Shown here one piece after another: positions 1,785-48,841 of a stretch of 64,000 nt of DNA (position 1 is the first letter of the stretch; every line of letters begins with the position of its first letter). Both the position numbers and the translations under genes were made by a program. The notes under the pieces were generated by a model. The model saw nothing but the letters and a program-made list of their open reading frames with translations. It was not told where the DNA came from and made no database searches. This DNA is from an uncultured Fibrobacterota bacterium (lineage in GTDB: Bacteria; Fibrobacterota; OXYB2-FULL-49-7; JAEUSG01): assembly GCA_963831235.1 (NCBI GenBank), contig CAWHPS010000047.1, positions 2,306 to 66,305 of the forward strand, read 5' to 3'.

Positions 1785-1880
1785 TCAGAACTCCTGACCT
1801 CGCGTAATTTGAAAACACCCACAATTTTAGAAATTTCAATAAACTAAAGAATTGAGCTATGACGCCAAAAAGCGGTTGGA

Positions 1881-3836
1881 TTATTGACGGTTGTGCATAG
1901 TTTGAAGGATTTTTCTGATCAGCTCGGGGGTGCGAATAATCTTTTTTACCTTTGGCGATAGATTTCTATTTTCTTGTTCTTCGTTTTTTAATTTATTTCT
2001 GACCAGGTTTACATCGATTTGTGCAAATCGAGCTTCCAGCGATGGTGCACCGTTAAGAATGATCGTTCGATATGTGTTGTCGGACAGGTTTGAGATTAAC
2101 GGGGTATCTGTCAAGATAGCCTTCAGAGTTTTGGTCATAGTGTTATTGCCGTTTCTTTTTCTGTGGTTCCTGCGCAGATATCTGAAGAACCGCTCAAGGA
2201 TATTATTGGTCCGTTGAGGATAAATGATAACGGTGCCATGGGGTGTGTTTTTAACGATAGGGTCGGCGAAAAGCTTGTTCCAATAGCGTTTGATTTGGTC
2301 GTGCATTGAGCGGTAATCCTTATCGGGCTTGGTTTTCAAAGTCTCGGCCAGCGCCTTCTGAAAGTTTGTAACACGTTGACAAATAGTATTCATGTTCTTT
2401 TTGCCGTCGTCGTTTAAGCCATGTCTATCGTTTGGTAACGCAATTCGCATCGCCTGCCGCAAGCGGTCAAACACAACGGATTTTTCTTCCATACGATGAG
2501 CTGCTTTCTTCAACAGAGGGTCGTTGATGGTGTCGCCGATGTGTTTCCATAGGATACCGACCATTCGTTTGAGAGATTTCGGGGCTTTGTCACATCGGAC
2601 TCTGAGGTTATCAAGAACTTCATGGATTGAACAAAGCCGCTGATACAACGAAAGGTGAGGCCGGTCAAATGGGAAGCCGTACCCGTCGCCGTCCTTTTTT
2701 CCCTCTAGCGCCCAATGTATCAACACATAAACAATGAGAATGAGTGAGGTATCCGCGCAAAAAGACTGTGACGCGTTGTCATTGAGTCGGGCGCGAAGCA
2801 CATCGACACAGACAGGATCTTTTTCCACCAGTGGTTTGAGGATGCGGGCTTGCCTGTGCAGAAACGATTGAATGCCTTGACAGCGCAATCGTTTTCGCAC
2901 CACATCATTTTCTTTTGACATCAGGTCTTTTCCGATATCACGCAAAAAATGGAAATGACAGATGAAATGGCGCACAGAAGGGAATACTTTGGCAACGGCA
3001 TTCAAAATGCCCTTGGCCATGTCGCTTACAACAGCCAGTGGTACGTTGAAGTTTTGTTTTACTCGTTGAAGAAAGGGAATTATTTGTTCAGCATTTTCAG
3101 ATGGGGTTTTGATATTGTCCAGTACCAGTTCGCTAATACCATCCAAGGCACACATAAGATGGGGACTGTCAGCATCACAGGTGCTGTCCAGGTGAAGTAT
3201 GTATCCCCCGTGTTGACGCATGTGCGCCTGCAACTGCTTTCTACATTCCTGATGTGCAATAGCCAGATAGATAATAAATTTTCTGGCAAGCACACCAATT
3301 TCACTGCGAGAAATGGGGTTACCCTTTTCCCGCAGGCAATCCATGATCTCCTGTTCGCTGCGACAGGCGATGAAAAGTTGTGTGCCGACGAACACGATAA
3401 CATCATAGCCATAGAAGCCTTGCTCCGGTACCAGCGCAGAAAGCCCACGGACAGGCAATGTGCTTTGACAAAAAGGTTTATTGCAGGCACGTACCGTTTC
3501 ATGAGCGGTAAAAACACCTATCGCAAGTGTTGATACCTTTCGTGTTCTGGTTTTGATAACCGCGAGCGTGCTATTGCACTGATGGCATAGCGTAACATCA
3601 GAATCGAAGAAAAGGGTTGGTGGAGTTTTGAACAGAGCTGAAATGGTAAGGCCGGATCGAGCATCGTCAAGGTTTGTGCGTAGCGCTTCAATCAGCGACA
3701 ACCCGCAGTTTTTTTTTAATACCGTACTGTTCGAGGAGCGTATGAATCGCCTCTGGCGTAATGGCCGGCGATTGCGTCTGTAACCTACGGGCGCATTGTT
3801 CAATGGTGTCATCGGGATGCTGGATTCTGTCCACAA
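1881..3836 (-). CDS. IS transposase catalytic ORF (orfB), copy A
   Basis: 651-aa ORF with an N-terminal Cys-rich segment (CHQCNS..CNKPFC) and DDE-like blocks (HLDSTCD, VVSDMAKG, ICHFHFLRDIGKDL). The first ~40 codons overlap orfA and look out of frame (Arg-rich). Confidence 0.7.
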   Translation of the reverse strand: MWTESSIPMTPLNNAPVGYRRNRRPLRQRRFIRSSNSTVLKKNCGLSLIEALRTNLDDARSGLTISALFKTPPTLFFDSDVTLCHQCNSTLAVIKTRTRKVSTLAIGVFTAHETVRACNKPFCQSTLPVRGLSALVPEQGFYGYDVIVFVGTQLFIACRSEQEIMDCLREKGNPISRSEIGVLARKFIIYLAIAHQECRKQLQAHMRQHGGYILHLDSTCDADSPHLMCALDGISELVLDNIKTPSENAEQIIPFLQRVKQNFNVPLAVVSDMAKGILNAVAKVFPSVRHFICHFHFLRDIGKDLMSKENDVVRKRLRCQGIQSFLHRQARILKPLVEKDPVCVDVLRARLNDNASQSFCADTSLILIVYVLIHWALEGKKDGDGYGFPFDRPHLSLYQRLCSIHEVLDNLRVRCDKAPKSLKRMVGILWKHIGDTINDPLLKKAAHRMEEKSVVFDRLRQAMRIALPNDRHGLNDDGKKNMNTICQRVTNFQKALAETLKTKPDKDYRSMHDQIKRYWNKLFADPIVKNTPHGTVIIYPQRTNNILERFFRYLRRNHRKRNGNNTMTKTLKAILTDTPLISNLSDNTYRTIILNGAPSLEARFAQIDVNLVRNKLKNEEQENRNLSPKVKKIIRTPELIRKILQTMHNRQ

Positions 3837-4332
3837 GAATAAGCACGGTATCGCTACTACGTGGCTTATGCGGCGGGCTTACACTATCATGGCTGGTACG
3901 CTGCGCTATTTGCCTGGATCGCACGTCGCTGTTGGCCGAGAAATAAACCAGCTTATGGCCTATGCGATGCGACGATATTTCCTTGATACTGCCAAAGTGC
4001 GTATAGAGCGATGGAGCCGATACACCAAGGATAGAGCAGAGACTCTGTGCGTCGAGCCCTTCTTGCGATTCTCCTACTATATAGGCAACGGTTTTGGTCA
4101 GGTTCCCATGTCGTGAAAAACAAATGTCATTATGCCGCCAGATACCGTAACTGTCAAACTGTGGAACAGTGGATAACGCGTGGTATTTGGCGTTATGGTT
4201 GTAGCTGGTGTAGGCATTCCACTGGTGAAGTCTTCGCGAGGCAGTTCGTGTTGAGCATTTTGAAATTCTGGTGAATGTGTCGATGGTAAATACTTTTGCT
4301 TTGCATAATTGTTGCTGGACGGTTACTGCCAC
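3688..4332 (-). CDS. IS orfA (putative HTH DNA-binding protein), copy A
   Basis: 214-aa ORF upstream of orfB and overlapping it by 149 nt. Ends 20 nt (6 sense codons) after an A9 tract. Confidence 0.6.
   Translation of the reverse strand: MAVTVQQQLCKAKVFTIDTFTRISKCSTRTASRRLHQWNAYTSYNHNAKYHALSTVPQFDSYGIWRHNDICFSRHGNLTKTVAYIVGESQEGLDAQSLCSILGVSAPSLYTHFGSIKEISSHRIGHKLVYFSANSDVRSRQIAQRTSHDSVSPPHKPRSSDTVLILVDRIQHPDDTIEQCARRLQTQSPAITPEAIHTLLEQYGIKKKLRVVAD
3709..3717 (-). promoter_or_regulatory. A9 slippery tract at the orfA/orfB junction (copy A; the equivalent tract in copy B is 6425-6433)
   Basis: T9 on the plus strand, A9 in the mRNA sense. orfB is in the +1 frame relative to orfA. The tract lies inside the overlap. 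Confidence 0.5.
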
Positions 4333-4596
4333 AATACCTCCTCGGCATAGTATATTATATAGCCTATATTAATATAATATACTGCGCCCTTTAAAGCAAA
4401 TAAAAAAGCCGTTTCCTTCTGAAAAGAAATCGGCACTTAATAAAAAATAGGCCCCGGTACTACCAATCACAAAACCGTATGTCGTATCGTATAAACTATT
4501 CCTCTATAGAAATGGTTGACATATTAAAAGATAATCGCTTTTCAACCGCTTTTTGGCGTCATAGGAATTGAGCTATGACGCCAAAAAGCGGTTGGA

Positions 4597-6552
4597 TTAT
4601 TGACGGTTGTGCATAGTTTGAAGGATTTTTCTGATCAGCTCGGGGGTGCGAATAATCTTTTTTACCTTTGGCGATAGATTTCTATTTTCTTGTTCTTCGT
4701 TTTTTAATTTATTTCTGACCAGGTTTACATCGATTTGTGCAAATCGAGCTTCCAGCGATGGTGCACCGTTAAGAATGATCGTTCGATATGTGTTGTCGGA
4801 AAGGTTTGAGATTAACGGGGTATCTGTCAAGATAGCCTTCAGAGTTTTGGTCATAGTGTTATTGCCGTTTCTTTTTCTGTGGTTCCTGCGCAGATATCTG
4901 AAGAACCGCTCAAGGATATTATTGGTCCGTTGAGGATAAATGATAACGGTGCCATGGGGTGTGTTTTTAACGATAGGGTCGGCGAAAAGCTTGTTCCAAT
5001 AGCGTTTGATTTGGTCGTGCATTGAGCGGTAATCCTTATCGGGCTTGGTTTTCAAAGTCTCGGCCAGCGCCTTCTGAAAGTTTGTAACACGTTGACAAAT
5101 AGTATTCATGTTCTTTTTGCCGTCGTCGTTTAAGCCATGTCTATCGTTTGGTAACGCAATTCGCATCGCCTGCCGCAAGCGGTCAAACACAACGGATTTT
5201 TCTTCCATACGATGAGCTGCTTTCTTCAACAGAGGGTCGTTGATGGTGTCGCCGATGTGTTTCCATAGGATACCGACCATTCGTTTGAGAGATTTCGGGG
5301 CTTTGTCACATCGGACTCTGAGGTTATCAAGAACTTCATGGATTGAACAAAGCCGCTGATACAACGAAAGGTGAGGCCGGTCAAATGGGAAGCCGTACCC
5401 GTCGCCGTCCTTTTTTCCCTCTAGCGCCCAATGTATCAACACATAAACAATGAGAATGAGTGAGGTATCCGCGCAAAAAGACTGTGACGCGTTGTCATTG
5501 AGTCGGGCGCGAAGCACATCGACACAGACAGGATCTTTTTCCACCAGTGGTTTGAGGATGCGGGCTTGCCTGTGCAGAAACGATTGAATGCCTTGACAGC
5601 GCAATCGTTTTCGCACCACATCATTTTCTTTTGACATCAGGTCTTTTCCGATATCACGCAAAAAATGGAAATGACAGATGAAATGGCGCACAGAAGGGAA
5701 TACTTTGGCAACGGCATTCAAAATGCCCTTGGCCATGTCGCTTACAACAGCCAGTGGTACGTTGAAGTTTTGTTTTACTCGTTGAAGAAAGGGAATTATT
5801 TGTTCAGCATTTTCAGATGGGGTTTTGATATTGTCCAGTACCAGTTCGCTAATACCATCCAAGGCACACATAAGATGGGGACTGTCAGCATCACAGGTGC
5901 TGTCCAGGTGAAGTATGTATCCCCCGTGTTGACGCATGTGCGCCTGCAACTGCTTTCTACATTCCTGATGTGCAATAGCCAGATAGATAATAAATTTTCT
6001 GGCAAGCACACCAATTTCACTGCGAGAAATGGGGTTACCCTTTTCCCGCAGGCGATCCATGATCTCCTGTTCGCTGCGACAGGCGATGAAAAGTTGTGTG
6101 CCGACGAACACGATAACATCATAGCCATAGAAGCCTTGCTCCGGTACCAGCGCAGAAAGCCCACGGACAGGCAATGTGCTTTGACAAAAAGGTTTATTGC
6201 AGGCACGTACCGTTTCATGAGCGGTAAAAACACCTATCGCAAGTGTTGATACCTTTCGTGTTCTGGTTTTGATAACCGCGAGCGTGCTATTGCACTGATG
6301 GCATAGCGTAACATCAGAATCGAAGAAAAGGGTTGGTGGAGTTTTGAACAGAGCTGAAATGGTAAGGCCGGATCGAGCATCGTCAAGGTTTGTGCGTAGC
6401 GCTTCAATCAGCGACAACCCGCAGTTTTTTTTTAATACCGTACTGTTCGAGGAACGTATGAATCGCCTCTGGCGTAATGGCCGGCGATTGCGTCTGTAAC
6501 CTACGGGCGCATTGTTCAATGGTGTCATCGGGATGCTGGATTCTGTCCACAA
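4597..6552 (-). CDS. IS transposase catalytic ORF (orfB), copy B
   Basis: 651 aa, one amino-acid difference from copy A (IMDRLREKG versus IMDCLREKG). Confidence 0.7.
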   Translation of the reverse strand: MWTESSIPMTPLNNAPVGYRRNRRPLRQRRFIRSSNSTVLKKNCGLSLIEALRTNLDDARSGLTISALFKTPPTLFFDSDVTLCHQCNSTLAVIKTRTRKVSTLAIGVFTAHETVRACNKPFCQSTLPVRGLSALVPEQGFYGYDVIVFVGTQLFIACRSEQEIMDRLREKGNPISRSEIGVLARKFIIYLAIAHQECRKQLQAHMRQHGGYILHLDSTCDADSPHLMCALDGISELVLDNIKTPSENAEQIIPFLQRVKQNFNVPLAVVSDMAKGILNAVAKVFPSVRHFICHFHFLRDIGKDLMSKENDVVRKRLRCQGIQSFLHRQARILKPLVEKDPVCVDVLRARLNDNASQSFCADTSLILIVYVLIHWALEGKKDGDGYGFPFDRPHLSLYQRLCSIHEVLDNLRVRCDKAPKSLKRMVGILWKHIGDTINDPLLKKAAHRMEEKSVVFDRLRQAMRIALPNDRHGLNDDGKKNMNTICQRVTNFQKALAETLKTKPDKDYRSMHDQIKRYWNKLFADPIVKNTPHGTVIIYPQRTNNILERFFRYLRRNHRKRNGNNTMTKTLKAILTDTPLISNLSDNTYRTIILNGAPSLEARFAQIDVNLVRNKLKNEEQENRNLSPKVKKIIRTPELIRKILQTMHNRQ

Positions 6553-7048
6553 GAATAAGCACGGTATCGCTACTACGTGGCTTATGCGGCGGGCTTACAC
6601 TATCATGGCTGGTACGCTGCGCTATTTGCCTGGATCGCACGTCGCTGTTGGCCGAGAAATAAACCAGCTTATGGCCTATGCGATGCGACGATATTTCCTT
6701 GATACTGCCAAAGTGCGTATAGAGCGATGGAGCCGATACACCAAGGATAGAGCAGAGACTCTGTGCGTCGAGCCCTTCTTGCGATTCTCCTACTATATAG
6801 GCAACGGTTTTGGTCAGGTTCCCATGTCGTGAAAAACAAATGTCATTATGCCGCCAGATACCGTAACTGTCAAACTGTGGAACAGTGGATAACGCGTGGT
6901 ATTTGGCGTTATGGTTGTAGCTGGTGTAGGCATTCCACTGGTGAAGTCTTCGCGAGGCAGTTCGTGTTGAGCATTTTGAAATTCTGGTGAATGTGTCGAT
7001 GGTAAATACTTTTGCTTTGCATAATTGTTGCTGGACGGTTACTGCCAC
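6404..7048 (-). CDS. IS orfA, copy B
   Basis: 214 aa, one amino-acid difference from copy A (IHTFLEQ versus IHTLLEQ). Confidence 0.6.
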   Translation of the reverse strand: MAVTVQQQLCKAKVFTIDTFTRISKCSTRTASRRLHQWNAYTSYNHNAKYHALSTVPQFDSYGIWRHNDICFSRHGNLTKTVAYIVGESQEGLDAQSLCSILGVSAPSLYTHFGSIKEISSHRIGHKLVYFSANSDVRSRQIAQRTSHDSVSPPHKPRSSDTVLILVDRIQHPDDTIEQCARRLQTQSPAITPEAIHTFLEQYGIKKKLRVVAD

Positions 7049-7513
7049 AATACCTCCTCGGCATAGTATATTATATAGCCTATATTAATATAATATACTG
7101 CGCCCTTTAAAGCAAATAAAAAAGCCGTTTCCTTCTGAAAAGAAATCGGCACTTAATAAAAAATAGGCCCCGGTACTACCAATCACAAAACCGTATGTCG
7201 TATCGTATAAACTATTCCTCTATAGAAATGGTTGACATATTAAAAGATAATCGCTTTTCAACCGCTTTTTGGCGTCATAGGAATTGAGGCATTTCTTTAC
7301 GACCGTAATTGTATATTTAATAATACATTACAGTAGTAATTGCACTCGTAAACATGGACCATAGAAACTAAAAACGTTTAAAAAATGGACTATTTCTGTT
7401 TTCGACCATATTTTAGGCTTTTATATATATTTACTGGAATAATGCATTTGATAATTAAGCAGTTACAGGTATTAAAGCAAGACCATCGGTTATAGCGAGG
7501 TCAGGAGTTCTGA

Positions 7514-7642
7514 TCCTACTTCCCAAGGAAGTGATGATGGGGCGTATAATTCAGCGCCTTTAGTGGCACTGATGATGTCCTGCTTGTCAGGCTCATCCAT
7601 CAGAATTGCGATTATAATTGATGTATCCAGGACAATTTTCAT
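7514..7642 (-). pseudogene. vapC: vapC (PIN-domain toxin) N-terminal fragment
   Basis: ATG at 7642 with AAGGAG 7 nt upstream. MKIVLDTSIIIAILMDEPDKQ is a typical PIN N-terminus. The reading frame breaks at the MITE end (7513). Confidence 0.75.
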
Positions 7643-7687: not shown

Positions 7688-7730
7688 ATACCGGGTGGGT
7701 CGGGGGCCTCTCGGCCCCGTTCCCCCCTCA

Positions 7731-7764
7731 GAACCGTACGTGACAGTTTCCCGTCATACGGCTC
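7731..7764 (-). ncRNA. group II intron domain V hairpin (copy 1; copies 2 and 3 are at 12863-12896 and 20942-20975)
   Basis: Minus strand reads GAGCCGTATGACGGGAAACTGTCACGTACGGTTC. This is 34 nt with an AGC triad at positions 2-4, a GAAA tetraloop and a 2-nt CG bulge on the 3' strand. A domain VI-like helix with a bulged A follows. Confidence 0.8.
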
Positions 7765-8168
7765 AAGCATTCATAAGGCAGCACCTTGCTTTTGTGCCAC
7801 CCAGACGTAACCTTGTGGCCAACTCGCTTACCATACGGATGGTTATTGCACTTAGCGCGTATAATCCGTACAGCGTGAATCCGGTTACGGCCTTTGCGAT
7901 ACGCACCAGCAGGCCCTAAGTCGCTGTCGACGGGAGGGGGCCCGATTTGCACATAAGTCGCGTCAGTTTCAGACGCCTTTTTGGTGTCGCCACCATGCAA
8001 ACCACCATAGCGTTCCCTCCTGGAAGGGTTCTCCTGATTATCTCGCAGTAGAACACCAGCATAGACCGTCAGCCTCCCATACGGGTGAGATAATGTTCCA
8101 CCGTCGTCAATCGGCGGTCAATCTCTATCTCCCTCATTACAAGAGAGCATTCGCTTCTGTCAGCTTCT

Positions 8169-10745
8169 GTCGGGATAGAGTTTACGCGCGCGCACATTAG
8201 GGTTCGTTGGCTTTTCCACAAACTTTCGCTGTGGGCCTCAGCACGACTCCCATCGTCACGTTTCATAAAGCCTCCCTGCGATCCCGGACGGTCGGTTTTC
8301 CCGAGTCCGGTTCTGACCTTGGCTCACCTTATATTTTCCGGTCATAAGCCTTCCCATCTTTTGTCTCGGCTTAAGTGTCGGCACACATACACCAAGTCTT
8401 GCATGGTTTACTTATTTCCTCGCCACTGCTCTTTATGGATGCTTATCCAGCTCTGTGTCTGGACATCCATATAGTCCCAGTGACCGCCAAGTGCCCAGAG
8501 CCCCTTTGCTATGGAAGTGTTACCTTCCGTTCTTAGCTCATACTGGCTCATGCGCCAGTCTCTTGTTCTCCACCCTTTTTCTTCCTATAAGGATGGTCTT
8601 TGCAGGTTGCTGCCGCCCCTGCTGAACATGAGACCTTCCCGACATTATTTCTGCAATCCTTGTGTAGGCGCATGGACCCGTATCCCGTTGTGCCTCCTTG
8701 CTGCATTTACCCACTTCTTTGCAAGGAGCATCGGCTTCACGTTCGGGGTGATACGTTCAGCGCACAAAACTTATCCTTGCCATGCAACTTCGGCAAGGGG
8801 AGGTATTTCGGGACTGCAGTCATTCGTTCATCTTCAAGCTCCTACACTCGCTAGACCTCCAGGTTGCTCCCACCTCAGCTTTATCCAAGCTGGGCGGCCA
8901 GGCCGTTTACACCACGCATTCCTCTGATGGTTGCCTGCACAGAGGTGTGGTATCGCTACGTGTCCGACATGGGCAATTGACACGGTTGGACTTCCACCAA
9001 CTGGATTGCAGCCTTGTCGGCTGCTCCGTCGGGATAGAGTTTACGCGCGCGCACATTAGGGTTCGTTGGCTTTTCCACAAACTTTCGCTGTGGGCCTCAG
9101 CACGACTCCCATCGTCACGTTTCATAAAGCCTCCCTGCGATCCCGGACGGTCGGTTTTCCCGAGTCCGGTTCTGACCTTGGCTCACCTTATATTTTCCGG
9201 TCATAAGCCTTCCCATCTTTTGTCTCGGCTTAAGTGTCGGCACACATACACCAAGTCTTGCATGGTTTACTTATTTCCTCGCCACTGCTCTTTATGGATG
9301 CTTATCCAGCTCTGTGTCTGGACATCCATATAGTCCCAGTGACCGCCAAGTGCCCAGAGCCCCTTTGCTATGGAAGTGTTACCTTCCGTTCTTAGCTCAT
9401 ACTGGCTCATGCGCCAGTCTCTTGTTCTCCACCCTTTTTCTTCCTATAAGGATGGTCTTTGCAGGTTGCTGCCGCCCCTGCTGAACATGAGACCTTCCCG
9501 ACATTATTTCTGCAATCCTTGTGTAGGCGCATGGACCCGTATCCCGTTGTGCCTCCTTGCTGCATTTACCCACTTCTTTGCAAGGAGCATCGGCTTCACG
9601 TTCGGGGTGATACGTTCAGCGCACAAAACTTATCCTTGCCATGCAACTTCGGCAAGGGGAGGTATTTCGGGACTGCAGTCATTCGTTCATCTTCAAGCTC
9701 CTACACTCGCTAGACCTCCAGGTTGCTCCCACCTCAGCTTTATCCAAGCTGGGCGGCCAGGCCGTTTACACCACGCATTCCTCTGATGGTTGCCTGCACA
9801 GAGGTGTGGTATCGCTACGTGTCCGACATGGGCAATTGACACGGTTGGACTTCCACCAACTGGATTGCAGCCTTGTCGGCTGCTCCGTCGGGATAGAGTT
9901 TACGCGCGCGCACATTAGGGTTCGTTGGCTTTTCCACAAACTTTCGCTGTGGGCCTCAGCACGACTCCCATCGTCACGTTTCATAAAGCCTCCCTGCAAT
10001 CCCGGACGGTCGGTTTTCCCGAGTCCGGTTCTGACCTTGGCTCACCTTATATTTTCCGGTCATAAGCCTTCCCATCTTTTGTCTCGGCTTAAGTGTCGGC
10101 ACACATACACCAAGTCTTGCATGGTTTACTTATTTCCTCGCCACTGCTCTTTATGGATGCTTATCCAGCTCTGTGTCTGGACATCCATATAGTCCCAGTG
10201 ACCGCCAAGTGCCCAGAGCCCCTTTGCTATGGAAGTGTTACCTTCCGTTCTTAGCTCATACTGGCTCATGCGCCAGTCTCTTGTTCTCCACCCTTTTTCT
10301 TCCTATAAGGATGGTCTTTGCAGGTTGCTGCCGCCCCTGCTGAACATGAGACCTTCCCGACATTATTTCTGCAATCCTTGTGTAGGCGCATGGACCCGTA
10401 TCCCGTTGTGCCTCCTTGCTGCATTTACCCACTTCTTTGCAAGGAGCATCGGCTTCACGTTCGGGGTGATACGTTCAGCGCACAAAACTTATCCTTGCCA
10501 TGCAACTTCGGCAAGGGGAGGTATTTCGGGACTGCAGTCATTCGTTCATCTTCAAGCTCCTACACTCGCTAGACCTCCAGGTTGCTCCCACCTCAGCTTT
10601 ATCCAAGCTGGGCGGCCAGGCCGTTTACACCACGCATTCCTCTGATGGTTGCCTGCACAGAGGTGTGGTATCGCTACGTGTCCGACATGGGCAATTGACA
10701 CGGTTGGACTTCCACCAACTGGATTGCAGCCTTGTCGGCTGCTCC
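8169..10745 (-). repeat. three exact head-to-tail copies of an 859-bp unclassified element nested in intron copy 1
   Basis: Units at 8169-9027, 9028-9886 and 9887-10745. 2577 = 3 x 859. One SNP was seen between units (gatcccgg versus aatcccgg). Absent from intron copies 2 and 3. Confidence 0.85.
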
Positions 10746-11283
10746 CACCCCATACCTCCATCAACCCACCTTGCGGCCAGTCTGCTCTTCCAGTAGCAAA
10801 GAGCGTAGCTATGAGGTTACTTCGTTCCGTGTTTTGACCCATTAGATGCTTTAGGTTTGCGTAGTCCGCCGGTGGGGCTATTATCCGTGCCGGGACTAGT
10901 TGGAGAGTCCCCAGCCACCCACATCCGCCTTGCGACGGACACAGGCCTGTCAATTCCTTTGGCCTGCTACCTTCGTGACGACGGTTAACCGCATTCAGTT
11001 AGTTTAACCATGGCATCCTATTCTATGCCCGACTTTGCCGGAATGGAATTATCCGGAGAGACCCAGCCTCGCGGCTTGGCCCCTGCACTTTTGAATGTGC
11101 TGAGCACTTTGTCCGGGAGGCTTCATACCCACCGTAACAGGATTACGGCACGCATGCTCCCGTAGAATCTCGATGACGGAACATCGGGTCTGACAGGTTA
11201 CCATCATGACGAGTGCGATATTCTCGTCTTATCAGCCAATGGCAGCCTTCAGACAGTCAAAGAACACAGTTGACGAATCGCGA

Positions 11284-11408
11284 CCACGGCGGGTTGTGTT
11301 GCGCGCGCTGGCGAGCATCGAGCGAGCCTTTATATCAAAGGCAACAAAATCCATGATCAATATTTGTTGCCCTCTTTGCGCGCGTCAATACCAACCCGAT
11401 AGTTGGGG
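11284..11408 (-). repeat. integron attC site 1 (R' box split by intron copy 1)
   Basis: L' GGGTTGTGTTGCGCGCGC and L'' GCGCGCGTCAATACCAAC arms, with R'' GTTGGGG on the plus strand. Near-identical to attC-23. Confidence 0.8.
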
Positions 11409-11609
11409 CTGCACCGCGAATGTGCCCACGCGTTAAGCTACCGCGGTGTCAGCATTTCCGGCGCCATTACACATTGTGTCTTTTCAGTTAAGTGATCCCA
11501 GGCGCTAGCCTGAATTTTCATCTCTTTTTATTATCACGAGACTTTGTTGCAGCGCCATTAGATTGTTGTCTAATCTGGAAAATGTGAGTGCGTATAAAAA
11601 TTAGGGTAA

Positions 11610-12821: not shown

Positions 12822-13838
12822 ACCGGGTGGGTCGGGGGCCTCTCGGCCCCGTTCCCCCCTCAGAACCGTACGTGACAGTTTCCCGTCATACGGCTCAAGC
12901 ATTCATAAGGCAACACCTTGCTTTTGTGCCACCCAGACGTAACCTTGTGGCCAACTCGCTTACCATACGGATGGTTATTGCACTTAGCGCGTATAATCCG
13001 TACAGCGTGAATCCGGTTACGGCCTTTGCGATACGCACCAGCAGGCCCTAAGTCGCTGTCGACGGGAGGGGGCCCGATTTGCACATAAGTCGCGTCAGTT
13101 TCAGACGCCTTTTTGGTGTCGCCACCATGCAAACCACCATAGCGTTCCCTCCTGGAAGGGTTCTCCTGATTATCTCGCAGTAGAACACCAGCATAGACCG
13201 TCAGCCTCCCATACGGGTGAGATAATGTTCCACCGTCGTCAATCGGCGGTCAATCTCTATCTCCCTCATTACAAGAGAGCATTCGCTTCTGTCAGCTTCT
13301 CACCCCATACCTCCATCAACCCACCTTGCGGCCAGTCTGCTCTTCCAGTAGCAAAGAGCGTAGCTATGAGGTTACTTCGTTCCGTGTTTTGACCCATTGG
13401 ATGCTTTAGGTTTGCGTAGTCCGCCGGTGGGGCTATTATCCGTGCCGGGACTAGTTGGAGAGTCCCCAGCCACCCACATCCGCCTTGCGACGGACACAGG
13501 CCTGTCAATTCCTTTGGCCTGCTACCTTCGTGACGACGGTTAACCGCATTCAGTTAGTTTAACCATGGCATCCTATTCTATGCCCGACTTTGCCGGAATG
13601 GAATTATCCGGAGAGACCCAGCCTCGCGGCTTGGCCCCTGCACTTTTGAATGTGCTGAGCACTTTGTCCGGGAGGCTTCATACCCACCGTAACAGGATTA
13701 CGGCACGCATGCTCCCGTAGAATCTCGATGACGGAACATCGGGTCTGACAGGTTACCATCATGACGAGTGCGATATTCTCGTCTTATCAGCCAATGGCAG
13801 CCTTCAGACAGTCAAAGAACACAGTTGACGAATCGCGA
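12822..13838 (-). mobile_element. ORF-less group II intron-like element, copy 2 (1017 nt)
   Basis: Domain V at 12863-12896. Flanks are the cassette leader ...TTTTCGGC on the left and attC-2 on the right. No RT-like ORF. Confidence 0.7.
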
Positions 13839-13967
13839 ACAACGAGCACTTGTGTTGCACGCGCTGCGAGCGATAAGCGAGCGATCCTATTAATGAAGAA
13901 GCAAATCCATAATCTATTTAACGCTTCTTTCCCTTGCGCACGTCAACACCAAGCGCTTAGTTGGGCA
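13839..13967 (-). repeat. integron attC site 2 (divergent sequence family, R' split by intron copy 2)
   Basis: ACAACGAGCACTTGTGTTGCACGCGC ... GCGCACGTCAACACCAAGCGCTTAGTTGGGC. Same architecture as the other sites but a clearly different sequence. Confidence 0.65.
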
Positions 13968-14073
13968 AGCGACGCGGCCAGCCCGCCTGCTATACCGAGT
14001 CCGCGGCGTCTGTCTCTTTTCCATCTTTATGAATCTTGTTGGTGGCCGTTTTCCGCCCGTTCCGCGCGTGTCT

Positions 14074-15982: not shown

Positions 15983-17116
15983 ATGATTTCAACGCCATGC
16001 ACTTTTATCGAATACTTCCAAGACATACCGGACCCACGCATAGAACGTAAAAAACTCCACAAACTTATCGACATAATTGTTGTCTTGGTATGTGCTACCC
16101 TTTGCGGCGCCAAGTCATTCGAGGAAGTCGAATTATTTGGCAACGAGCGAATAGAGTGGCTTAAACAGTTTCTTGAACTCAAAAACGGCATTCCATCGCA
16201 TGACACTTTTGGGCGGGCCAGTGCCTTGCTAAATCCGAAAGACTTTCAAGAATGCTTTATAAAATGGGTTGAGGCGTTACGATTGCCGAAACAAAATGAA
16301 GTAATTGCAGTCGATGGAAAAACCGCACGGCGTTCATTTGATACCAAGGCCGACCGAAATGCTATCCATGTCGTTAGTGCCTGGGCAGCAGAAAATAACT
16401 TGGTACTGGGGCAAATAAAGGTGAATGATAAATCCAACGAAATCACCGCTATCCCTGAATTGCTGAATATGCTCATGGTGAAAGGATGTATCGTCACTAT
16501 CGATGCAATGGGTTGTCAAAAAGCTATTGCCGACAATATTGTAACCAATGGCGCGGATTATGTTCTCGCCGTTAAAGAAAATCAACCGAGCCTGTATGAA
16601 CAAATCCGCAACCGCGTAGATACTGTCGTGGTGGATGGGTTGAAAGATGTGGCCCATGACACGTATTCAACAGAGGATAAGGGACATGGTCGCGAAGAGC
16701 ATCGTGAGTATCATGTTATCGATGATATTACCTGGCTAAAAAATAAGGAACAGTGGCGATCATTGTCTGCTATCGGTGCTGTTCACTCCATAAGGAAAAC
16801 AAAAAAAGCAGAGCAGACAGAAATACGGTATTATATTCTCAGTCGTAAAATGTCGGCAAAACAGTTTGGTCAGGCAGTACGCAGTCATTGGGGAATTGAA
16901 AACAAATTGCATTGGAATCTGGATGTGTCTTTTAGAGAGGATGACTGTCGCATTAGAAAATCAAATGCACCAACAAATATGAATGTAGTCCGGCATGTCG
17001 CTATAAATCTATTGAGACAGGAAACATCAATAAAAGCCAGTATCGTACGCAAACAATTAAAAGCAGCTTTGAGCACACAATATTTGGAGCGCATCCTTGG
17101 AATCGTTAAATTTTAA
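15983..17116 (+). CDS. ISAs1-family transposase
   Basis: DPRIERKKLHKLIDIIVVLVCATLCGAKSFEEVELFG and HWGIENKLHWNLDVSFREDDCR are hallmark ISAs1 (H-repeat) motifs. Confidence 0.9.
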   Translation: MISTPCTFIEYFQDIPDPRIERKKLHKLIDIIVVLVCATLCGAKSFEEVELFGNERIEWLKQFLELKNGIPSHDTFGRASALLNPKDFQECFIKWVEALRLPKQNEVIAVDGKTARRSFDTKADRNAIHVVSAWAAENNLVLGQIKVNDKSNEITAIPELLNMLMVKGCIVTIDAMGCQKAIADNIVTNGADYVLAVKENQPSLYEQIRNRVDTVVVDGLKDVAHDTYSTEDKGHGREEHREYHVIDDITWLKNKEQWRSLSAIGAVHSIRKTKKAEQTEIRYYILSRKMSAKQFGQAVRSHWGIENKLHWNLDVSFREDDCRIRKSNAPTNMNVVRHVAINLLRQETSIKASIVRKQLKAALSTQYLERILGIVKF

Positions 17117-17410
17117 TGCGATTGCCCTGTTACACGAGTAACATCGCCGCACTGATATTCAAAACGCAGGGTCTGTTCTACAATATCAATAAAATGTCTT
17201 AAAGAACTTTCCATGCCCCATCCCGATATTTTAAAACCAATTGAGTTATTAAGTGGGTTATTTTAAAAATATATGATTAATAGTAAGAAATGACATACTT
17301 TCAGTAAGTTTTGCCATACTAAACTTCTTTCCCTAATAATAAAAATAACTTATACTTATTAACAGATATTCAATTAATAGTAGGTTTTTACAAGGAATGA
17401 AGGAGGCATT

Positions 17411-19861
17411 ATGACGAAGATGCGAAACGAGTTCGACTATGCGGCGATCGTTGACCCGGAGGAAATGCGGGACGCCCGTCTGTATCTGGCGCCCATGCTG
17501 GAGACGGCGAGGGTCATCGCGGACACCCCTGGTGCAGGGCCTGAAATCGTCTGCGTGTCCCAAGGCTGGGGCACATTGCAGATCGGCCGCTCCGTGCACC
17601 ACAAAAAGACCCCTTTGTGTCTTGCGGGGAGGACGTTCGCGTCCGGGTTGGGAACCCATGCCGACAGCGAAATCCTGATTCGGCTTCCCGCCGGGGCTGG
17701 GCGATTAACGGGCCTGTGCGGCGTCAACGACAGCCTGGAGACGCGCCAGTTGACCGCCCATGCGCTGGTGTTTCGTATCGAGGTCGATGGTCAAGAGGTG
17801 TGGCGGAGCGGGCCCCAGGACGCCGGCACCGAGCCGGCGCGTGTCGATGCGCGGCTCGCCGGTTGCAAGCAGTTCACCTTGAAGGTCGAGGGGCCGAATA
17901 ATTATGGTCACGCAAATTGGGTCGATTTGAAAGCCACGTTGACCAACGGCAAGATCGTCGAAATTGGCAAGCCGCAAGCCGTTGACATCGGGTTCAGCTT
18001 CCGGTATGGCGGAAAACCGTCGGCGGGGTTTCTCGCGGCCTGGCGGCCGAAGAAACAGCGGTTGCCGGAGAAGGACGGCGTCGTTCTGCACCGGATTACC
18101 CGCACCGATCCGAAGACCGGGCTGGCGGTAATCTGCGAAATCAAGGAATACACACGGTTTCCGGTGGTGGAATGGGGCCTGCGCCTGAAGAACACCTCGA
18201 AGCGCAAGACGCCGCTCCTGGAGGACATCCGGTCTCTGGACACGGAACTGTGGCTCGGTCAGTTCCCATATCTGAACCACTGGAACGGCGACTACTGCGC
18301 GCAGGACGGCTACGAGCCGTTTCGGGTCTCGCTGGCGCATGAGGAGGAGTACCGGTTTGCGCCGGTGGGCGGCCGCCCGACCGATCGCGCCTGGCCGTAT
18401 TACAATCTCGAGTGCCCGAGCGCCAACTGCGGTCTGATCGTCGTGGTGGGTTGGTCCGGGCAATGGGCGTCTTGTTTTCGCGGACTCGACAATCACGCCG
18501 TCCACATTACCGCCGGCCAGGAGCTGACGCATTTCAAGCTTTTGCCGGGCGAGGAAGTGCGCACCCCGTTGTCGGTGCTGATGTTCTATCGCGGCGACCG
18601 GGTGCGCTCGCAGAACCTCTGGCGGCGGTGGATGCTGGCTCATAATCTGCCCCGGCCCGGCGGACGGCTGCCCGAGCCGATCCTGCCAGTGTACTGTGCA
18701 CAGGTGGGTACCGAAATGGCGGCGGAGACCGAGGAAACGCAGAAAGCCGGCATGGAACGCTACGTCGAGGAGGGGATCAAGCTCGATTACTGGTGGATGG
18801 ACGCGGGCTGGTACCCGTGCGATGGCCAGTGGTCCAAAACGGGCACGTGGGAGCCGGACTCGAAGCGCTTTCCACGCGGCCTGCGGGCCGTATGCGACCA
18901 CGCGCATGCCCGGGGCATGAAGACGCTGGTCTGGTTCGAGCCTGAGCGAGTGCATCCGGATACCTGGCTGTGGAAGGAGCGGCCCCAGTGGTTGCTCTCA
19001 TCCCAAAAGTCGAATTACCGGCTGCTCGACCTCGGCAACCCGGCAGCGCTGAAGTGGCTGATCAACCATGTGGTCCGGACGATCCGCGAGCAGGGGATCG
19101 ACCTGTACCGGCAGGATTTCAACTTCCAGCCGTTGCCGCACTGGCGCGCCAACGATGCGCCGGATCGGCAGGGGATCAGCGAGATCCGCCATGTCGAGGG
19201 GTATCTCGCCTATTGGACCGCGTTGCGTCAGCGGTTCCCCGGCATGCTGATCGACTCCTGCTCCAGCGGCGGGCGTCGCAACGACCTAGAAACCATGCGG
19301 CTTGCCGTGCCGTTCCACAAGACCGACTACAACTATGACGACCAGACGACCAAACAGGCGTTTCACCACACGCTGTCCTCATGGCTGCCGTATTACGGCG
19401 CGCTCTTGTTGGCGGAAGACATGGGGGATGTTTACGCGTTCCGCAGCTCGCTGGCCTCGATGACGTTGTTTGTCAACAACCTGCAGGGTGATGTGGACTG
19501 GCGCCAGTTGAAGCGCTTCACCGAGGAATGGCGGCGCATCACCGGCGCCGGGTATTTCTACGGCGACTACTATCCCCTGACCCCCTACAACCGCGACGAG
19601 ACCCAGTGGATCGCCTGGCAGTTTCACCGGCCGGATACCGGCAAGGGCCTGGTGCAGGCGTTCCGGCGCAAAGATAGCAAGGTTGTGTCAACCCGATTCC
19701 ATTTGCAGGGGCTGGAACTCGACGTGTCGTATGTCATAACGGACGTGGATGCACCGAAAAAAAGGATCACCCTGTCCGGCAAGGAACTGATGACTTCCGG
19801 CCTGATGATAGAGATGCGTCGGGCGCCACAGGCGGCGGTAATCCTGTACCAGAAGGCGTGA
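17411..19861 (+). CDS. GH36-type alpha-galactosidase with an N-terminal NPCBM-like carbohydrate-binding module
   Basis: DYWWMDAGWY, GMKTLVWFEPERV, YRQDFN and SCSSGGRRNDLE motifs. N-terminus has GLGTHADSEI...ANWVDLKATL. The CDS is conspicuously GC-rich and all other frames are open. Confidence 0.7.
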   Translation: MTKMRNEFDYAAIVDPEEMRDARLYLAPMLETARVIADTPGAGPEIVCVSQGWGTLQIGRSVHHKKTPLCLAGRTFASGLGTHADSEILIRLPAGAGRLTGLCGVNDSLETRQLTAHALVFRIEVDGQEVWRSGPQDAGTEPARVDARLAGCKQFTLKVEGPNNYGHANWVDLKATLTNGKIVEIGKPQAVDIGFSFRYGGKPSAGFLAAWRPKKQRLPEKDGVVLHRITRTDPKTGLAVICEIKEYTRFPVVEWGLRLKNTSKRKTPLLEDIRSLDTELWLGQFPYLNHWNGDYCAQDGYEPFRVSLAHEEEYRFAPVGGRPTDRAWPYYNLECPSANCGLIVVVGWSGQWASCFRGLDNHAVHITAGQELTHFKLLPGEEVRTPLSVLMFYRGDRVRSQNLWRRWMLAHNLPRPGGRLPEPILPVYCAQVGTEMAAETEETQKAGMERYVEEGIKLDYWWMDAGWYPCDGQWSKTGTWEPDSKRFPRGLRAVCDHAHARGMKTLVWFEPERVHPDTWLWKERPQWLLSSQKSNYRLLDLGNPAALKWLINHVVRTIREQGIDLYRQDFNFQPLPHWRANDAPDRQGISEIRHVEGYLAYWTALRQRFPGMLIDSCSSGGRRNDLETMRLAVPFHKTDYNYDDQTTKQAFHHTLSSWLPYYGALLLAEDMGDVYAFRSSLASMTLFVNNLQGDVDWRQLKRFTEEWRRITGAGYFYGDYYPLTPYNRDETQWIAWQFHRPDTGKGLVQAFRRKDSKVVSTRFHLQGLELDVSYVITDVDAPKKRITLSGKELMTSGLMIEMRRAPQAAVILYQKA

Positions 19862-20900: not shown

Positions 20901-21917
20901 ACCGGGTGGGTCGGGGGCCTCTCGGCCCCGTTCCCCCCTCAGAACCGTACGTGACAGTTTCCCGTCATACGGCTCAAGCATTCATAAGGCAACACCTTGC
21001 TTTTGTGCCACCCAGACGTAACCTTGTGGCCAACTCGCTTACCATACGGATGGTTATTGCACTTAGCGCGTATAATCCGTACAGCGTGAATCCGGTTACG
21101 GCCTTTGCGATACGCACCAGCAGGCCCTAAGTCGCTGTCGACGGGAGGGGGCCCGATTTGCACATAAGTCGCGTCAGTTTCAGACGCCTTTTTGGTGTCG
21201 CCACCATGCAAACCACCATAGCGTTCCCTCCTGGAAGGGTTCTCCTGATTATCTCGCAGTAGAACACCAGCATAGACCGTCAGCCTCCCATACGGGTGAG
21301 ATAATGTTCCACCGTCGTCAATCGGCGGTCAATCTCTATCTCCCTCATTACAAGAGAGCATTCGCTTCTGTCAGCTTCTCACCCCATACCTCCATCAACC
21401 CACCTTGCGGCCAGTCTGCTCTTCCAGTAGCAAAGAGCGTAGCTATGAGGTTACTTCGTTCCGTGTTTTGACCCATTGGATGCTTTAGGTTTGCGTAGTC
21501 CGCCGGTGGGGCTATTATCCGTGCCGGGACTAGTTGGAGAGTCCCCAGCCACCCACATCCGCCTTGCGACGGACACAGGCCTGTCAATTCCTTTGGCCTG
21601 CTACCTTCGTGACGACGGTTAACCGCATTCAGTTAGTTTAACCATGGCATCCTATTCTATGCCCGACTTTGCCGGAATGGAATTATCCGGAGAGACCCAG
21701 CCTCGCGGCTTGGCCCCTGCACTTTTGAATGTGCTGAGCACTTTGTCCGGGAGGCTTCATACCCACCGTAACAGGATTACGGCACGCATGCTCCCGTAGA
21801 ATCTCGATGACGGAACATCGGGTCTGACAGGTTACCATCATGACGAGTGCGATATTCTCGTCTTATCAGCCAATGGCAGCCTTCAGACAGTCAAAGAACA
21901 CAGTTGACGAATCGCGA
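20901..21917 (-). mobile_element. ORF-less group II intron-like element, copy 3 (1017 nt)
   Basis: No differences from copy 2 were detected. Domain V at 20942-20975. Flanked by the leader ...TTTCCGGC and by attC-4. Confidence 0.7.
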
Positions 21918-22041
21918 GCAACGGCGGGTTGTGTTGCGCGCGCTGCGAGCTTCCAGCGAGCTTTATATTAAAGGCAACAAAATCTATAATCTATTTTTGT
22001 TGCCATCTTTGCGCGCGTCAATACCAACCCGATAGTTGGGG
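21918..22041 (-). repeat. integron attC site 4 (R' split by intron copy 3)
   Basis: GCAACGGCGGGTTGTGTTGCGCGCGC ... GCGCGCGTCAATACCAACCCGATAGTTGGGG. Confidence 0.8.
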
Positions 22042-22376
22042 CTGCACCGCGAATTCGCCCGCGTACCAAGCCTCCGCGGTGTCAGCATTTCCGGCGCATT
22101 ACGTCTTGTGTCTTTTTAGTTAAGTTGATCTTGCGCCGGTCTTTTTTTTATGGACCTGTACCTATTCCAAAGAATCCTGCATTTTGAATCATTTCCTTGG
22201 ACCATCCAAATAAAACAGTCTGTATTGCCGGACTCCTCTGCCAAATTTGGTTTCAAATAGTGTACATAATATCGGGTGCATTCCCGATTTGTTGGTGTTT
22301 TTTAAGCCAAGTATTGACATTGACCCTTTTTTTTAGTATATTTCCGATAGCAATTATAATGCAATCGGAAAGGAGC

Positions 22377-24138: not shown

Positions 24139-24835
24139 TGTCACCCACAAAACGGGAATGCACCCCATAATATCCAACCCTAAAGCATCGTAACCCAAGA
24201 ATGGCCTCACAGAATCCTCCATCCGCGCTAAACTTGAAATCTTTCCATTTAACCTCTACAATTGACGACACGGCTATTGAGTCTATATTTTCTTGCTCTA
24301 TTTTCCACTTTTCAAAAGTTTGAGGAAAACCAAAGCCTGCAGCACTACCGTCTTTGCTCTTGCATGATATAGATACCTGTGAAAGAATAGAATAAGCATC
24401 TTTATACTTATGCACTGCAATGTTTTGAAAATAATTCCGAATTGTTTGAAAATATATACTGTCAGAAGGATTGCTTTGGATTGAAGCGGCCAAAAACAGG
24501 AGCGCAAGAATCGATTTGGTAATTGTTTTCATTTTGGCCTCTTTTTCTTAAACTCTCGATTTTGTTTTACTTGCGTTGCCTTCCACAAAGGATTTTGTCT
24601 TTATTCCGGCGCCGTTACGATTTGTGCCTTTTCAGTTAAGTTTATCTTGGCGCCGGTTGCATTTCTGGTATTTTTATAGCCCTCGAATACACATGCCTTT
24701 AATCCGGTGCCGTTACGCCAGTTGCTTTTCAGTTACATTTATCTTGGCACCGGATTTCGTCCTCATTTCTTCATTCCACTTAATTGTGCTCTGCACCAAT
24801 TACAGTTCTGCTTGTTGGGCTGCTCCGCTTTTGCC

Positions 24836-24963
24836 GGCACAACGGCGGGTTGTGTTGCGCGCGCCGCGAGCGTCAAGCGAGCTTTCAAATAAAAGGCAAC
24901 AAAGTCTATAATATATTTTTGTTGCCCTCTTTGCGCGCGTCAATACCAACCCGTTAGTTGGGC
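24836..24963 (-). repeat. integron attC site 5
   Basis: GGCACAAC R' box, L arms, GTTGGGC R'' box. Confidence 0.8.
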
Positions 24964-24964
24964 T

Positions 24965-25004
24965 GCACTGCGGTTTGCCACCCTGCTCAGCTTCCCGCAG
25001 TGTC
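24965..25004 (-). repeat. H module: conserved hairpin abutting R'' (representative copy)
   Basis: GCACTGCGG ... CCGCAGTG(T)C stem around a ~21-nt variable loop. A similar hairpin follows most attC sites. Confidence 0.6.
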
Positions 25005-45415: not shown

Positions 45416-45542
45416 GGCACAACGGCGGGTTGTGTTGCGCGCGCCGCGAGCTTCCAGCGAGCTTTATATTAAAGGCAACAAAGTCCATAATCAATATTTG
45501 TTGCCCTCCTTGCGCGCGTCAATACCAACCCGATAGTTGGGC
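45416..45542 (-). repeat. integron attC site 25
   Basis: GGCACAAC ... GTTGGGC. Confidence 0.8.
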
Positions 45543-47536: not shown

Positions 47537-48841
47537 ATGCAAATCAAAGAACAGATTCTTGTTCAATACGATCAATTCCTTGAAAAAGAAGGAATTCATC
47601 AAACCAATCGCCCCTTTTTCAGATATTGGCTAGCCCACTACTTGGATATTTGTCAGCGCCACAATACAAAACCTGACAATTATGGGAGCATTAACCCATT
47701 TATTCAAAGTTTGATAAAAATGGGGACGCCCCAATTTCAAGTTACCCAAGCACAGAAAGCTGCCGAATGGTATTGTAAAAACGCCTCGTGTCTTACGAAC
47801 ACTGATTATAAATTAAATAATCTAGAAGCACATAAGTCAAGTGAAAAAGCTAATGATTTTGATACTACTTTTAAGACAACAAACAAATGGGAGGAAGCAC
47901 TTAATCTTTTAAAGCAATCCATTAAGATAAGGCATTATTCAGGACGCACACTTGAAATCTATACTTACTGGACTCAAAAACTGGGGCGTTTTGCAAAAAA
48001 GGCCGACCCTTTTGAGCTTGTTTCAGATGATGCTCAGCAATATTTGACTTGGCTCGCTATGGAGAAAAAAGTAAGCAGTGCCACGCAAAACCAGGCGTTC
48101 AACGCGCTCCTTTTCTTTTACAAGAACGTATTAAAAAAGGAATATAAGATACTGTCAACCACTCCACGAGGAAAGACAACTCAAAATGCGCCTAATGTCC
48201 TGTCCCGCGAAGAAGTTCAACGACTATTTAGCAAGATGATCTATCCATACAAACTCGTTGCACAACTGATGTATGGTTGCGGTCTAAGATTGAGTGAGGT
48301 GTCAACAATAAGGGTCAAAGATATTGACTTTGATCAAAAAAAGTTGTGTGTGCGCAAAGGTAAAGGTAGAAAAGACAGAATACTTCCACTCCCCGAAAAA
48401 ATACTGGATGAGCTCAAAGCTCACATGAAAAGAGTCATGACACTATATGAATTTGACCTCAAGGAAGGATTTGATGGCGTATTCATGCCTGAAGAGTCTG
48501 AAGCAAAATTCAAGGGGAGAGCCCGCGATATTGCCTGGTACTGGTTTTTTCCGGCAAAAGGACTTACTAATCTCAAAGACAGCAATGAAATTAGACGCTA
48601 TCATCTACATGAAACAAATATTTACACAGCAATCAGGGAGGCTGCTAATTTAAGCTGCATCACCAAGCGCGTATCTCCGCATACATTACGCCACAGTTTT
48701 GCAACACATCTTCTACGGGCTGGACATGATATTCGGACGCTTCAGGAACTGCTGGGGCACAGTGATGTCCGTACCACAATGATCTATACACATACCCTGG
48801 AGAGTGATCCAAAACCTCTTAAAAGCCCCTTGGATATGTGA
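47537..48841 (+). CDS. intI: integron integrase IntI (tyrosine recombinase) with an N-terminal extension
   Basis: HTLRHSFATHLLRAGHDIRTLQELLGHSDVRTTMIYTH catalytic region. The IntI-specific insertion EAKFKGRARDIAWYWFFPA is comparable to [20 protein letters not shown] of IntI1. Adjacent to attI and the attC array. Confidence 0.9.
   Translation: MQIKEQILVQYDQFLEKEGIHQTNRPFFRYWLAHYLDICQRHNTKPDNYGSINPFIQSLIKMGTPQFQVTQAQKAAEWYCKNASCLTNTDYKLNNLEAHKSSEKANDFDTTFKTTNKWEEALNLLKQSIKIRHYSGRTLEIYTYWTQKLGRFAKKADPFELVSDDAQQYLTWLAMEKKVSSATQNQAFNALLFFYKNVLKKEYKILSTTPRGKTTQNAPNVLSREEVQRLFSKMIYPYKLVAQLMYGCGLRLSEVSTIRVKDIDFDQKKLCVRKGKGRKDRILPLPEKILDELKAHMKRVMTLYEFDLKEGFDGVFMPEESEAKFKGRARDIAWYWFFPAKGLTNLKDSNEIRRYHLHETNIYTAIREAANLSCITKRVSPHTLRHSFATHLLRAGHDIRTLQELLGHSDVRTTMIYTHTLESDPKPLKSPLDM

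Follow-up and report, generated by a model that had tools for sequence, protein, structure and literature searches.

A 64,000-nt stretch of contig CAWHPS010000047.1 (hereafter the window) from an uncultured Fibrobacterota bacterium (assembly GCA_963831235.1) contains the cassette array of a chromosomal integron, in which a 1017-nt element is present three times, each time on the minus strand. The element is a group II intron ribozyme without a reverse transcriptase (RT) or maturase open reading frame (ORF), and all three copies are found at attC sites of the array. The array lies beside the divergently oriented integrase gene intI, whose homologues, with identities as low as 57%, carry the annotation integron integrase. 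Scanning of the window with an attC profile made from five attC copies (nhmmer) revealed 24 full-length attC sites of ~133 nt each between 11286 and 46228, all 24 on the minus strand, with the order R'' GCCCAAC, TATC, GGGTTGGTATTGACGCGCGC, central region, GCGCGCGCAACACAACCC, GCC and R' G/TTGGGC (here and below, a slash marks a crossover or insertion point). Given this order, the two extra bases in the 5' (R''-L'') arm and the location of most cassette ORFs on the minus strand, the minus strand is the top strand of attC and the sense strand of the cassettes. An earlier interpretation made without database searches (the sequence-only reading) had equated the sense strand of the ribozyme with the cassette coding strand, in agreement with the uniform strand of the 24 sites, the divergent intI and the extra bases in the 5' arm. 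The coordinates of the main features are collected in Table 1.

Table 1. Position and strand of the integron, intron and inserted features in the window (D, intron domain; EBS, exon-binding site).
Feature	Coordinates	Strand	Details
Intron copy 2	12822..13838	-	1017 nt, 5' UCGCGA ... CCCGGU 3'; RF02012 and RF00029
DI core, copy 2	13586..13743	-	RF02012, 79.4 bits, full model
Predicted EBS1 loop	13453..13460	-	CUCCAACU; EBS1 = CCAAC (13454-13458); aligned to the covarying loop of relatives
DIV with weak traces	12900..13240 (approximate limits)	-	Shine-Dalgarno (SD)/start region, LLVRIAKAV, C-terminal ...LMNA-stop
Domain V, copy 2	12863..12896	-	34-nt hairpin; AGC triad, 2-nt bulge, GAAA loop
Domain VI, copy 2	12822..12859	-	Bulged A at 12828; 3' end ...GGU
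attC hosting copy 2	13843..13977	-	R' reads GTTGT up to the intron
Intron copy 3	20901..21917	-	Same sequence as copy 2
attC hosting copy 3	21921..22051	-	R' reads GTTGC up to the intron
Intron copy 1, 5' part	10746..11283	-	Intron nt 1-538 (538 nt; DI, DII); RF02012 at 11031-11188
Intron copy 1, 3' part	7690..8168	-	Intron nt 539-1017 (DIII, DIV remnant, DV, DVI); RF00029 at 7690-7766
Nested insertion in copy 1	8169..10745	-	2577 nt = 3 x 859 nt head-to-tail; ends GGAGC...CCGAC
attC hosting copy 1	11286..11418	-	Last of array; R' reads GT-GG up to the intron
Empty attC, example	24842..24972	-	...CCGCCGTTGT/GCCGG
Integron integrase gene	47537..48841	+	Phage_integrase and SAM_4 (SAM-like) domains; divergent from cassette array

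Copies 2 and 3 share 100% identity over 1017 nt, which ends at both element borders except for four common flank bases on the 3' side. Copy 1 is 99% identical to copy 2, with a single mismatch in the 479 nt of its 3' part. The sequence-only reading had placed the three copies at 7690-11283, 12822-13838 and 20901-21917, coordinates that proved exact, with no mention that copy 1 is split into two parts by a 2577-nt insertion. As the insertion sits in the region of DIII and the junction between domains II and III (J2/3), copy 1 is inactivated. The termini are UCGCG ... GGU in all three copies and depart from the GUGYG ... AY consensus; the 5' end TCGCGA in place of GUGCG had been noted before and is constant among the copies. 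The 3' flanks, previously described as freely variable, are in fact 96% identical across ~176 nt between copies 2 and 3 (family D6). The cassettes headed by the three copies all differ, carrying MNT/HepT genes, a 206-aa ORF without assignment and a truncated PIN gene, and the first cassette bases are TTGT, TTGC and TGG. The host attC sites are diverged members of one family (81% mean column identity in the five-site alignment). Three findings support recent copying of the element: an identity of 100% between the introns, flanks that are 96% identical or unrelated, and a different cassette headed by each copy.

All three copies are inserted inside R', 3-4 nt 3' of the G/TT crossover, on the top strand and in sense orientation. 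The occupied sites read CGTTGT/intron/GCCGA, CGTTGC/intron/GCCGG and CGTGG/intron/ATTAAT, and the insertion is precise, given that empty sites read ...CCGCCGTTGT/GCCGG. This is in line with the earlier description of attC 5' flanks ending CGTTG(T/C) or CGTGG about 4 nt past G/TT. The proposal that one host attC belongs to a separate sequence family was not upheld, because the site that hosts copy 2, though divergent, falls within the attC family of the array (nhmmer E 2e-34). Since the intron is 3' of the crossover, it is formally part of the downstream cassette and could travel with it. Nothing in the sequence implies that the junction is blocked ('locked') against IntI, as G/TT and the first 4-5 nt of R' stay intact, and any effect on IntI recombination would be an indirect deduction.

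Covariance models support a complete ribozyme. At Rfam curated thresholds of 34, 40 and 49 bits for RF02012, RF00029 and RF02003, respectively, both RF02012 (group-II-D1D4-7; 79.4 bits, E 1e-14) and RF00029 (DV/DVI; 67.3 bits, E 4e-11) were above threshold in all three copies. The support therefore extends past the DV hairpin into DI, the check that the sequence-only reading had proposed. Its textbook DV, with AGC triad, 2-nt bulge and GAAA loop, and its DVI-like helix with a bulged A were both recovered: the last 79 nt fold as canonical DV and DVI (z = -4.4 against shuffles), and the only bulged A in DVI lies 7 nt before the 3' end, 7-8 nt being the criterion. Approximately 600 nt of DI-DIII precede DIV. 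A DI-DIII consensus structure of 87 pairs was derived from the element and 21 diverse family members, and 74 of 86 family-consensus pairs are kept in the element. In a broader alignment the 5' UCGCGAUUCG of the element aligns with GUGCGACACG of the family. A 47-nt 5' extension, possibly a captured exon, that appeared in the first alignment was dropped, the extra ~50 nt being an expansion within the first DI hairpin. In group II introns the first and penultimate nucleotides interact, so the U1/penultimate-G termini may be a compensated pair, and we infer that the element is catalytically competent despite these ends.

The sequence-only reading had assigned the element to class C. CGC-triad introns are class C. 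The AGC triad of the element, the ~600 nt of DI-DIII and the existence of IIB-type relatives that encode a T.el4h-like intron-encoded protein (IEP) speak against this assignment; AGC is described as the catalytic triad, with CGC in 'some introns' (PMC4424553). Relatives were obtained from a genome-collection scan with the exact DV 28-mer, a sequence that is not family-specific and matches across many phyla. Among the matches listed, Desulfobacterales loci share DI and DIII blocks with the element. One of them, L010, is a full-length intron encoding a 528-aa IEP with RVT_N, RVT_1 and GIIM domains, which matches PDB 6ME0_C (E 1.4e-165), a chain that we take to be the RT of the T.el4h group IIB intron. 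T. elongatus introns have been classed as chloroplast-like (CL)/IIB1 (PMC2882425). Several related loci carry ~1.03-kb ORF-less copies in which no more than the first and last codons of the L010-type IEP remain. A degenerate DIII pattern retrieved 120 loci of the wider family, none of them close to the element. A plasmid BLAST search with the intron gave similarity confined to DV/DVI (8% coverage), a metagenome scan with an element-specific 21-mer gave no match, and two viral scans gave one and none. Combined with the RF02012 match, the element is most likely of the IIB structural type and a member of the CL/IIB1-like lineage that this model represents.

No Pfam match was found for the longest ORFs of the element, and no RT was detected within the 64-kb window by tblastn with a related IEP, in accordance with the earlier statement that the 1017 nt hold no RT or maturase ORF. 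DIV contains faint traces, namely an SD/ATG region, LLVRIAKAV compared to LQMRIAKAV of the related IEP and a C-terminal ...LMNA-stop running into DV. These match the N- and C-termini of that IEP in position, each being non-significant alone (tblastn, E>1), and are too short for an IEP lineage to be read from them. Together with the analogy to the related ORF-less copies, these weak traces suggest that the element may have been produced by internal deletion of an IEP gene.

Across the aligned family members, a single terminal loop in DI covaries with the last six nt of the 5' exon. Loop and exon are complementary at 6/6 positions in eight members with five different sequences (CCUAAC with GUUAGG, AUUGAU with AUCAAU, UUUGAU with AUCAAA, UUGAAA with UUUCAA and GUCUUA with UAAGAC), and mean complementarity over the family is 4.93, compared to 4.32 +/- 0.12 after shuffling; the observed mean was reached in none of 2000 exon-loop shuffles. 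The covarying loop is the predicted EBS1, and homology and covariation assign the aligned loop of the element, with its CCAAC, the same role. Folding of the isolated hairpin did not give the expected loop, so that the assignment depends on homology and covariation and has no support from folding energy. The array's consensus R', GUUGG, is fully complementary to CCAAC, and GTTGG starts R' in 15 of the 21 empty attC sites. A similar preference is seen in the relatives: GTT is found at -6/-7 in 19 of 56 distinct 5' junctions of the family (fetched loci), these 19 comprising the Desulfobacterales arrays and eight other contigs, and folding of four of these contigs gave attC-like hairpins in three, each with additional bases in its 5' arm. 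From these alignments, a IIB-type sublineage appears to use base pairing to home to the top-strand R' core, and the element would be an ORF-less, divergent member of it. Stem-loop recognition with a short intron-binding site (IBS), the targeting proposed in the sequence-only reading, can thus hardly be the whole explanation in view of the EBS1 loop of the family, which covaries with the 5' exon and is of the type found in IIA and IIB introns. The hairpin may contribute here, as only 3-4 bp of IBS1 pair and no common EBS2 partner was seen by eye in one candidate stretch.

At eight loci outside the Desulfobacterales (L092, L153, L180, L188, L189, L203, L216 and L237), family introns follow GTTAGG, GTTGGG, GTTCGG or GTTAGC. 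The attC-like hairpins with extra 5'-arm bases were observed at L153, L203 and L237; an EBS1 loop reading CCUAAC and matching the 5' exon is present in L153, L188 and L237, and L216 has the same loop and was outside the exon scoring. Nine Desulfobacterales loci (L099, L114, L070, L077, L055, L063, L003, L010 and L057) contain ~130-nt attC-like repeat arrays ending AGCTCCCCGTT, in which both IEP-encoding and ~1.03-kb ORF-less introns are located at GTTNNN/ on the cassette-ORF strand; intron-free cassettes of these arrays have their ORFs on the strand of the intron. At L003, an ORF-less copy that is missing its first 3 nt directly adjoins DVI of a second intron.

Several observations weigh against the explanation favoured below. 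The predicted EBS1 pairs with 4/5 nt at copies 2 and 3 (mismatch at -1) and with 3/5 at copy 1, and all 15 perfect GTTGG sites are empty, the occupied ones being GTTGT, GTTGC and GT-GG. With three events, such avoidance of perfect sites has a probability of ~0.04 under random choice and is only suggestive. GTTGG is also present in the L'' arm and at the bottom-strand R'' of every attC, where it is unused. EBS1 pairing alone therefore cannot explain site choice, and a further determinant must exist, such as hairpin geometry, an EBS2, IEP contacts with the 3' exon or strand accessibility. An EBS2-IBS2 pairing common to the three sites was not seen by eye, with one candidate stretch, GAAGGUAG; in some relatives a 5-nt EBS2-type match (GGGAG with CUCCC, Desulfobacterales copies) was noticed in the same way. 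No EBS3 was pinpointed. The retention of consensus pairs (86%) is somewhat below that of most relatives (88-100%). The 5' end is UCGCG, compared to GUGCG in all relatives with a recovered 5' end, GUGCG having served as the criterion for locating those ends, and the 3' end is GU rather than AY. No close relative was found, the best being ~55% identical in DI-DIII and two collection scans giving none, and no IEP donor is visible in the window, which covers 64 kb of the 81-kb contig.

On balance, it is probable in our view that the element is a non-autonomous CL/IIB1-like intron whose EBS1 pairs with R' on the attC top strand and which has spread by retrohoming with an RT supplied in trans. In this pathway, an ancestral CL/IIB1-like retroelement would have lost its IEP gene through internal deletion, giving rise to the ORF-less element. 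The EBS1 loop of the sublineage would pair with the GTTRRR core of R', which would set the landing point 5-6 nt into R' and in the direction of the cassette. The intron RNA would then reverse-splice into the top strand at R', and a complementary DNA copy would be made by the RT of a related autonomous intron elsewhere in the genome. Mobilisation in trans is proposed by analogy with the ORF-less TeI3 introns of T. elongatus, for which the same mechanism was demonstrated experimentally (PMC2882425).

An immobile relic, inserted once and then multiplied at the DNA level by IntI cassette shuffling, homologous recombination of leaders or gene conversion, appears unlikely. The position of the intron just past G/TT, where it would travel with the downstream cassette, would suit this history, as would the 176-nt leader that is 96% identical between copies 2 and 3, the lack of an RT in the window and the non-canonical termini. 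However, the copies head three different cassettes (MNT/HepT, the 206-aa ORF and the truncated PIN gene) with different first bases, and the 100% identity gives way to 96%, or to no identity, precisely where the intron ends, a pattern that fits independent precise insertions better; gene conversion confined to the intron is possible. Still less probable is the proposal of the sequence-only reading, a class C-like ORF-less intron that recognises the attC stem-loop and a very short IBS, splices from cassette transcripts and blocks IntI. All three insertions do lie directly after the L'/R' stem, just 3-4 nt of the 5' exon are able to pair with the predicted EBS1, and with no common IBS2 seen the hairpin may contribute; the orientation also allows co-transcription with cassettes, two copies following toxin-antitoxin cassettes (PIN and MNT/HepT). 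The triad, the length of DI-DIII and the T.el4h-like IEP of the relatives speak against it (PMC4424553 for AGC versus CGC), as does the use of the bottom strand at R'' by IIC-attC introns (PMC3001079). Its functional part fares no better, because G/TT and GTTG of R' are intact, so that an IntI block does not follow from the sequence, and the termini of the intron that would have to splice are non-canonical.

A domesticated ribozyme, either a stand-alone RNA-guided hydrolytic nuclease of the HYER type or a cis-acting RNA affecting cassette expression, is very improbable. ORF-less group II RNAs with nuclease activity exist (HYERs, as summarised in PMC12990946), and DV, DVI and most DI-DIII pairs are kept in the element. 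However, in that summary HYERs are described as group IIC, unlike the IIB-like element; the DIVa start region and the putative vestiges of an IEP suggest a recent origin by deletion, the disruption of one copy has had no apparent consequence, and no conservation across genomes was found in the collection scans. Beyond the non-autonomous, EBS1-guided intron favoured here, a wider and tentative reading, which we would not yet expect to hold in full, is that a widespread and essentially undescribed CL/IIB clade has converged on integrons, with an EBS1 that copies the R'' core (..AAC) and invades R' (GTT...) on the top strand. Such a clade might move both by retrohoming and as IntI cassette cargo, and the ORF-less derivative might persist only at imperfect R' boxes, with co-varied U1/penultimate-G termini that may still permit splicing or a pathway through linear intron.

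The insertion in copy 1 is a tandem trimer placed cleanly at intron nt 538/539, the units of which differ by 1-2 single-nucleotide polymorphisms. Each 859-nt unit matches RF02003 (group-II-D1D4-4) at 47.6 bits (E 2e-8), just under the threshold of 49, and has a 34-nt DV-shaped hairpin in which AAC replaces the AGC/CGC triad and the loop is AAAA. No RF00029 match was obtained for the units even at E<=10, and none of their ORFs has a Pfam match. A permuted GUGCG...AU phase was dropped in favour of an array of exactly 3.0 cleanly inserted units; in this junction phase GGUGGAAGUCC lies ~27 nt from the 5' end, presumably as in class C introns. The unit is possibly a second ORF-less group II-like intron relic of class C-like type, and the trimeric arrangement may be an assembly artefact.

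Other features surround the introns. Most cassettes open with a conserved leader, TTGGGCCGG-N-GCAG-N-GCCCAAC(A/T), as at 24800-24841 and 45390-45421, which puts an R''-like GCCCAAC box ~20 nt past R', 3' of most attC sites. Some leaders contain a 61-nt repeat that includes an inverted repeat (CCGGTGCC...GGCACCGG); it occurs at six positions (12592, 12685, 20764, 22080, 24596 and 24694) and gives no Rfam match. Within the cassette array but on the opposite strand, 15983-19861 (+) carries an IS4-type transposase gene and an 816-aa glycoside hydrolase gene (Melibiase/NPCBM) at 62% G+C, compared to 42-48% around it, and looks like a foreign insertion, not a cassette. Just past the array end, 1849-7280 consists of two abutting copies of a 2716-bp insertion sequence with three internal mismatches, each encoding a 651-aa MULE/Mutator-like transposase and a 214-aa ORF; the pair adjoins a truncated PIN/VapC gene (7490-7642, minus).

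The attC sites were previously thought to be colonised almost solely by class C introns in antisense orientation. The window and the relatives of the element point to a second, IIB-type lineage that uses the other strand, the other core box and ordinary EBS1 pairing, and whose autonomous and stripped-down forms appear to have spread inside large chromosomal integrons. Sense introns at cassette junctions could leave read-through transcripts, ride with cassettes and alter R' boxes, which makes them relevant to both expression and reshuffling of the array. The U1/penultimate-G termini, common to the only published IIB intron from an integron, provide a natural setting in which to test how the first and penultimate nucleotides interact. 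The EBS1-to-R' top-strand pattern, present in several phyla and perhaps under-described, is the most interesting lead.

That published intron, UHB.I2, is a group IIB1/CL1 intron in a cassette array from a hypersaline metagenome (Sonbol & Siam 2021, PMC7923331), and in the literature searched IIB introns are tied to integrons only in that 2021 study. Compared by published description, UHB.I2 resembles the element in its IIB-type ribozyme with AGC triad, its location at the 3' end of attC in cassette orientation and its termini, which start with U and end in GU (UUGCG..GU in UHB.I2, UCGCG..GU in the element). Unlike the element, which is ORF-less, present three times and inside R', UHB.I2 encodes an IEP and occurs as a single copy 'immediately after' attC. 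The IIC-attC introns (S.ma.I2 and relatives) are also attC specialists that insert a few nt into a GTT-containing core box beside the stem, but they combine a class C ribozyme with a class C IEP and follow the published rule of bottom-strand insertion at R'' (TTGT/T), antisense to cassettes (PMC3001079, PMC7923331). The sequence-only reading had likewise described them as antisense, and the IIB-like, IEP-free element is their opposite, being in the top-strand R' and in sense. In this respect it is less novel than it seemed, with UHB.I2 and, as cited in PMC7923331, a group IIC intron on the top strand of an Enterobacter cloacae integron (Rodriguez-Martinez et al. 2012) already reported; by that citation, the E. 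cloacae intron shares the attC top strand and cassette orientation with the element and differs in being class C and IEP-encoding.

TeI3 of T. elongatus (Mohr et al. 2010, PMC2882425) is similar in another way, being multi-copy and having lost its IEP ORF by deletion in DIVb, with N- and C-terminal remnants (only weak traces in the element). TeI3 is mobilised in trans by the IEPs of related introns, as experimentally shown, and forms twintrons, whereas trans-mobilisation of the element is an inference; TeI3 also has GUGYG ends, targets set by diverged EBS and no integron link. HYERs (Liu et al. 2024), to the extent that they are summarised in PMC12990946, are likewise ORF-less bacterial group II RNAs, but are ~600-nt group IIC stand-alone nucleases with a 6-nt target site, while the element is IIB-like and looks like a retroelement deletion derivative. 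The nested 859-nt unit comes nearer to a IIC layout, but its DV is non-canonical. One sense-oriented IIB intron at attC (UHB.I2) and ORF-less IIB introns (T. elongatus) are thus already published, and the element is not a new category but a stripped-down member of a little-described intron lineage, unusual in its U1/penultimate-G termini, its occupation of imperfect R' boxes only and its nested tandem trimer.

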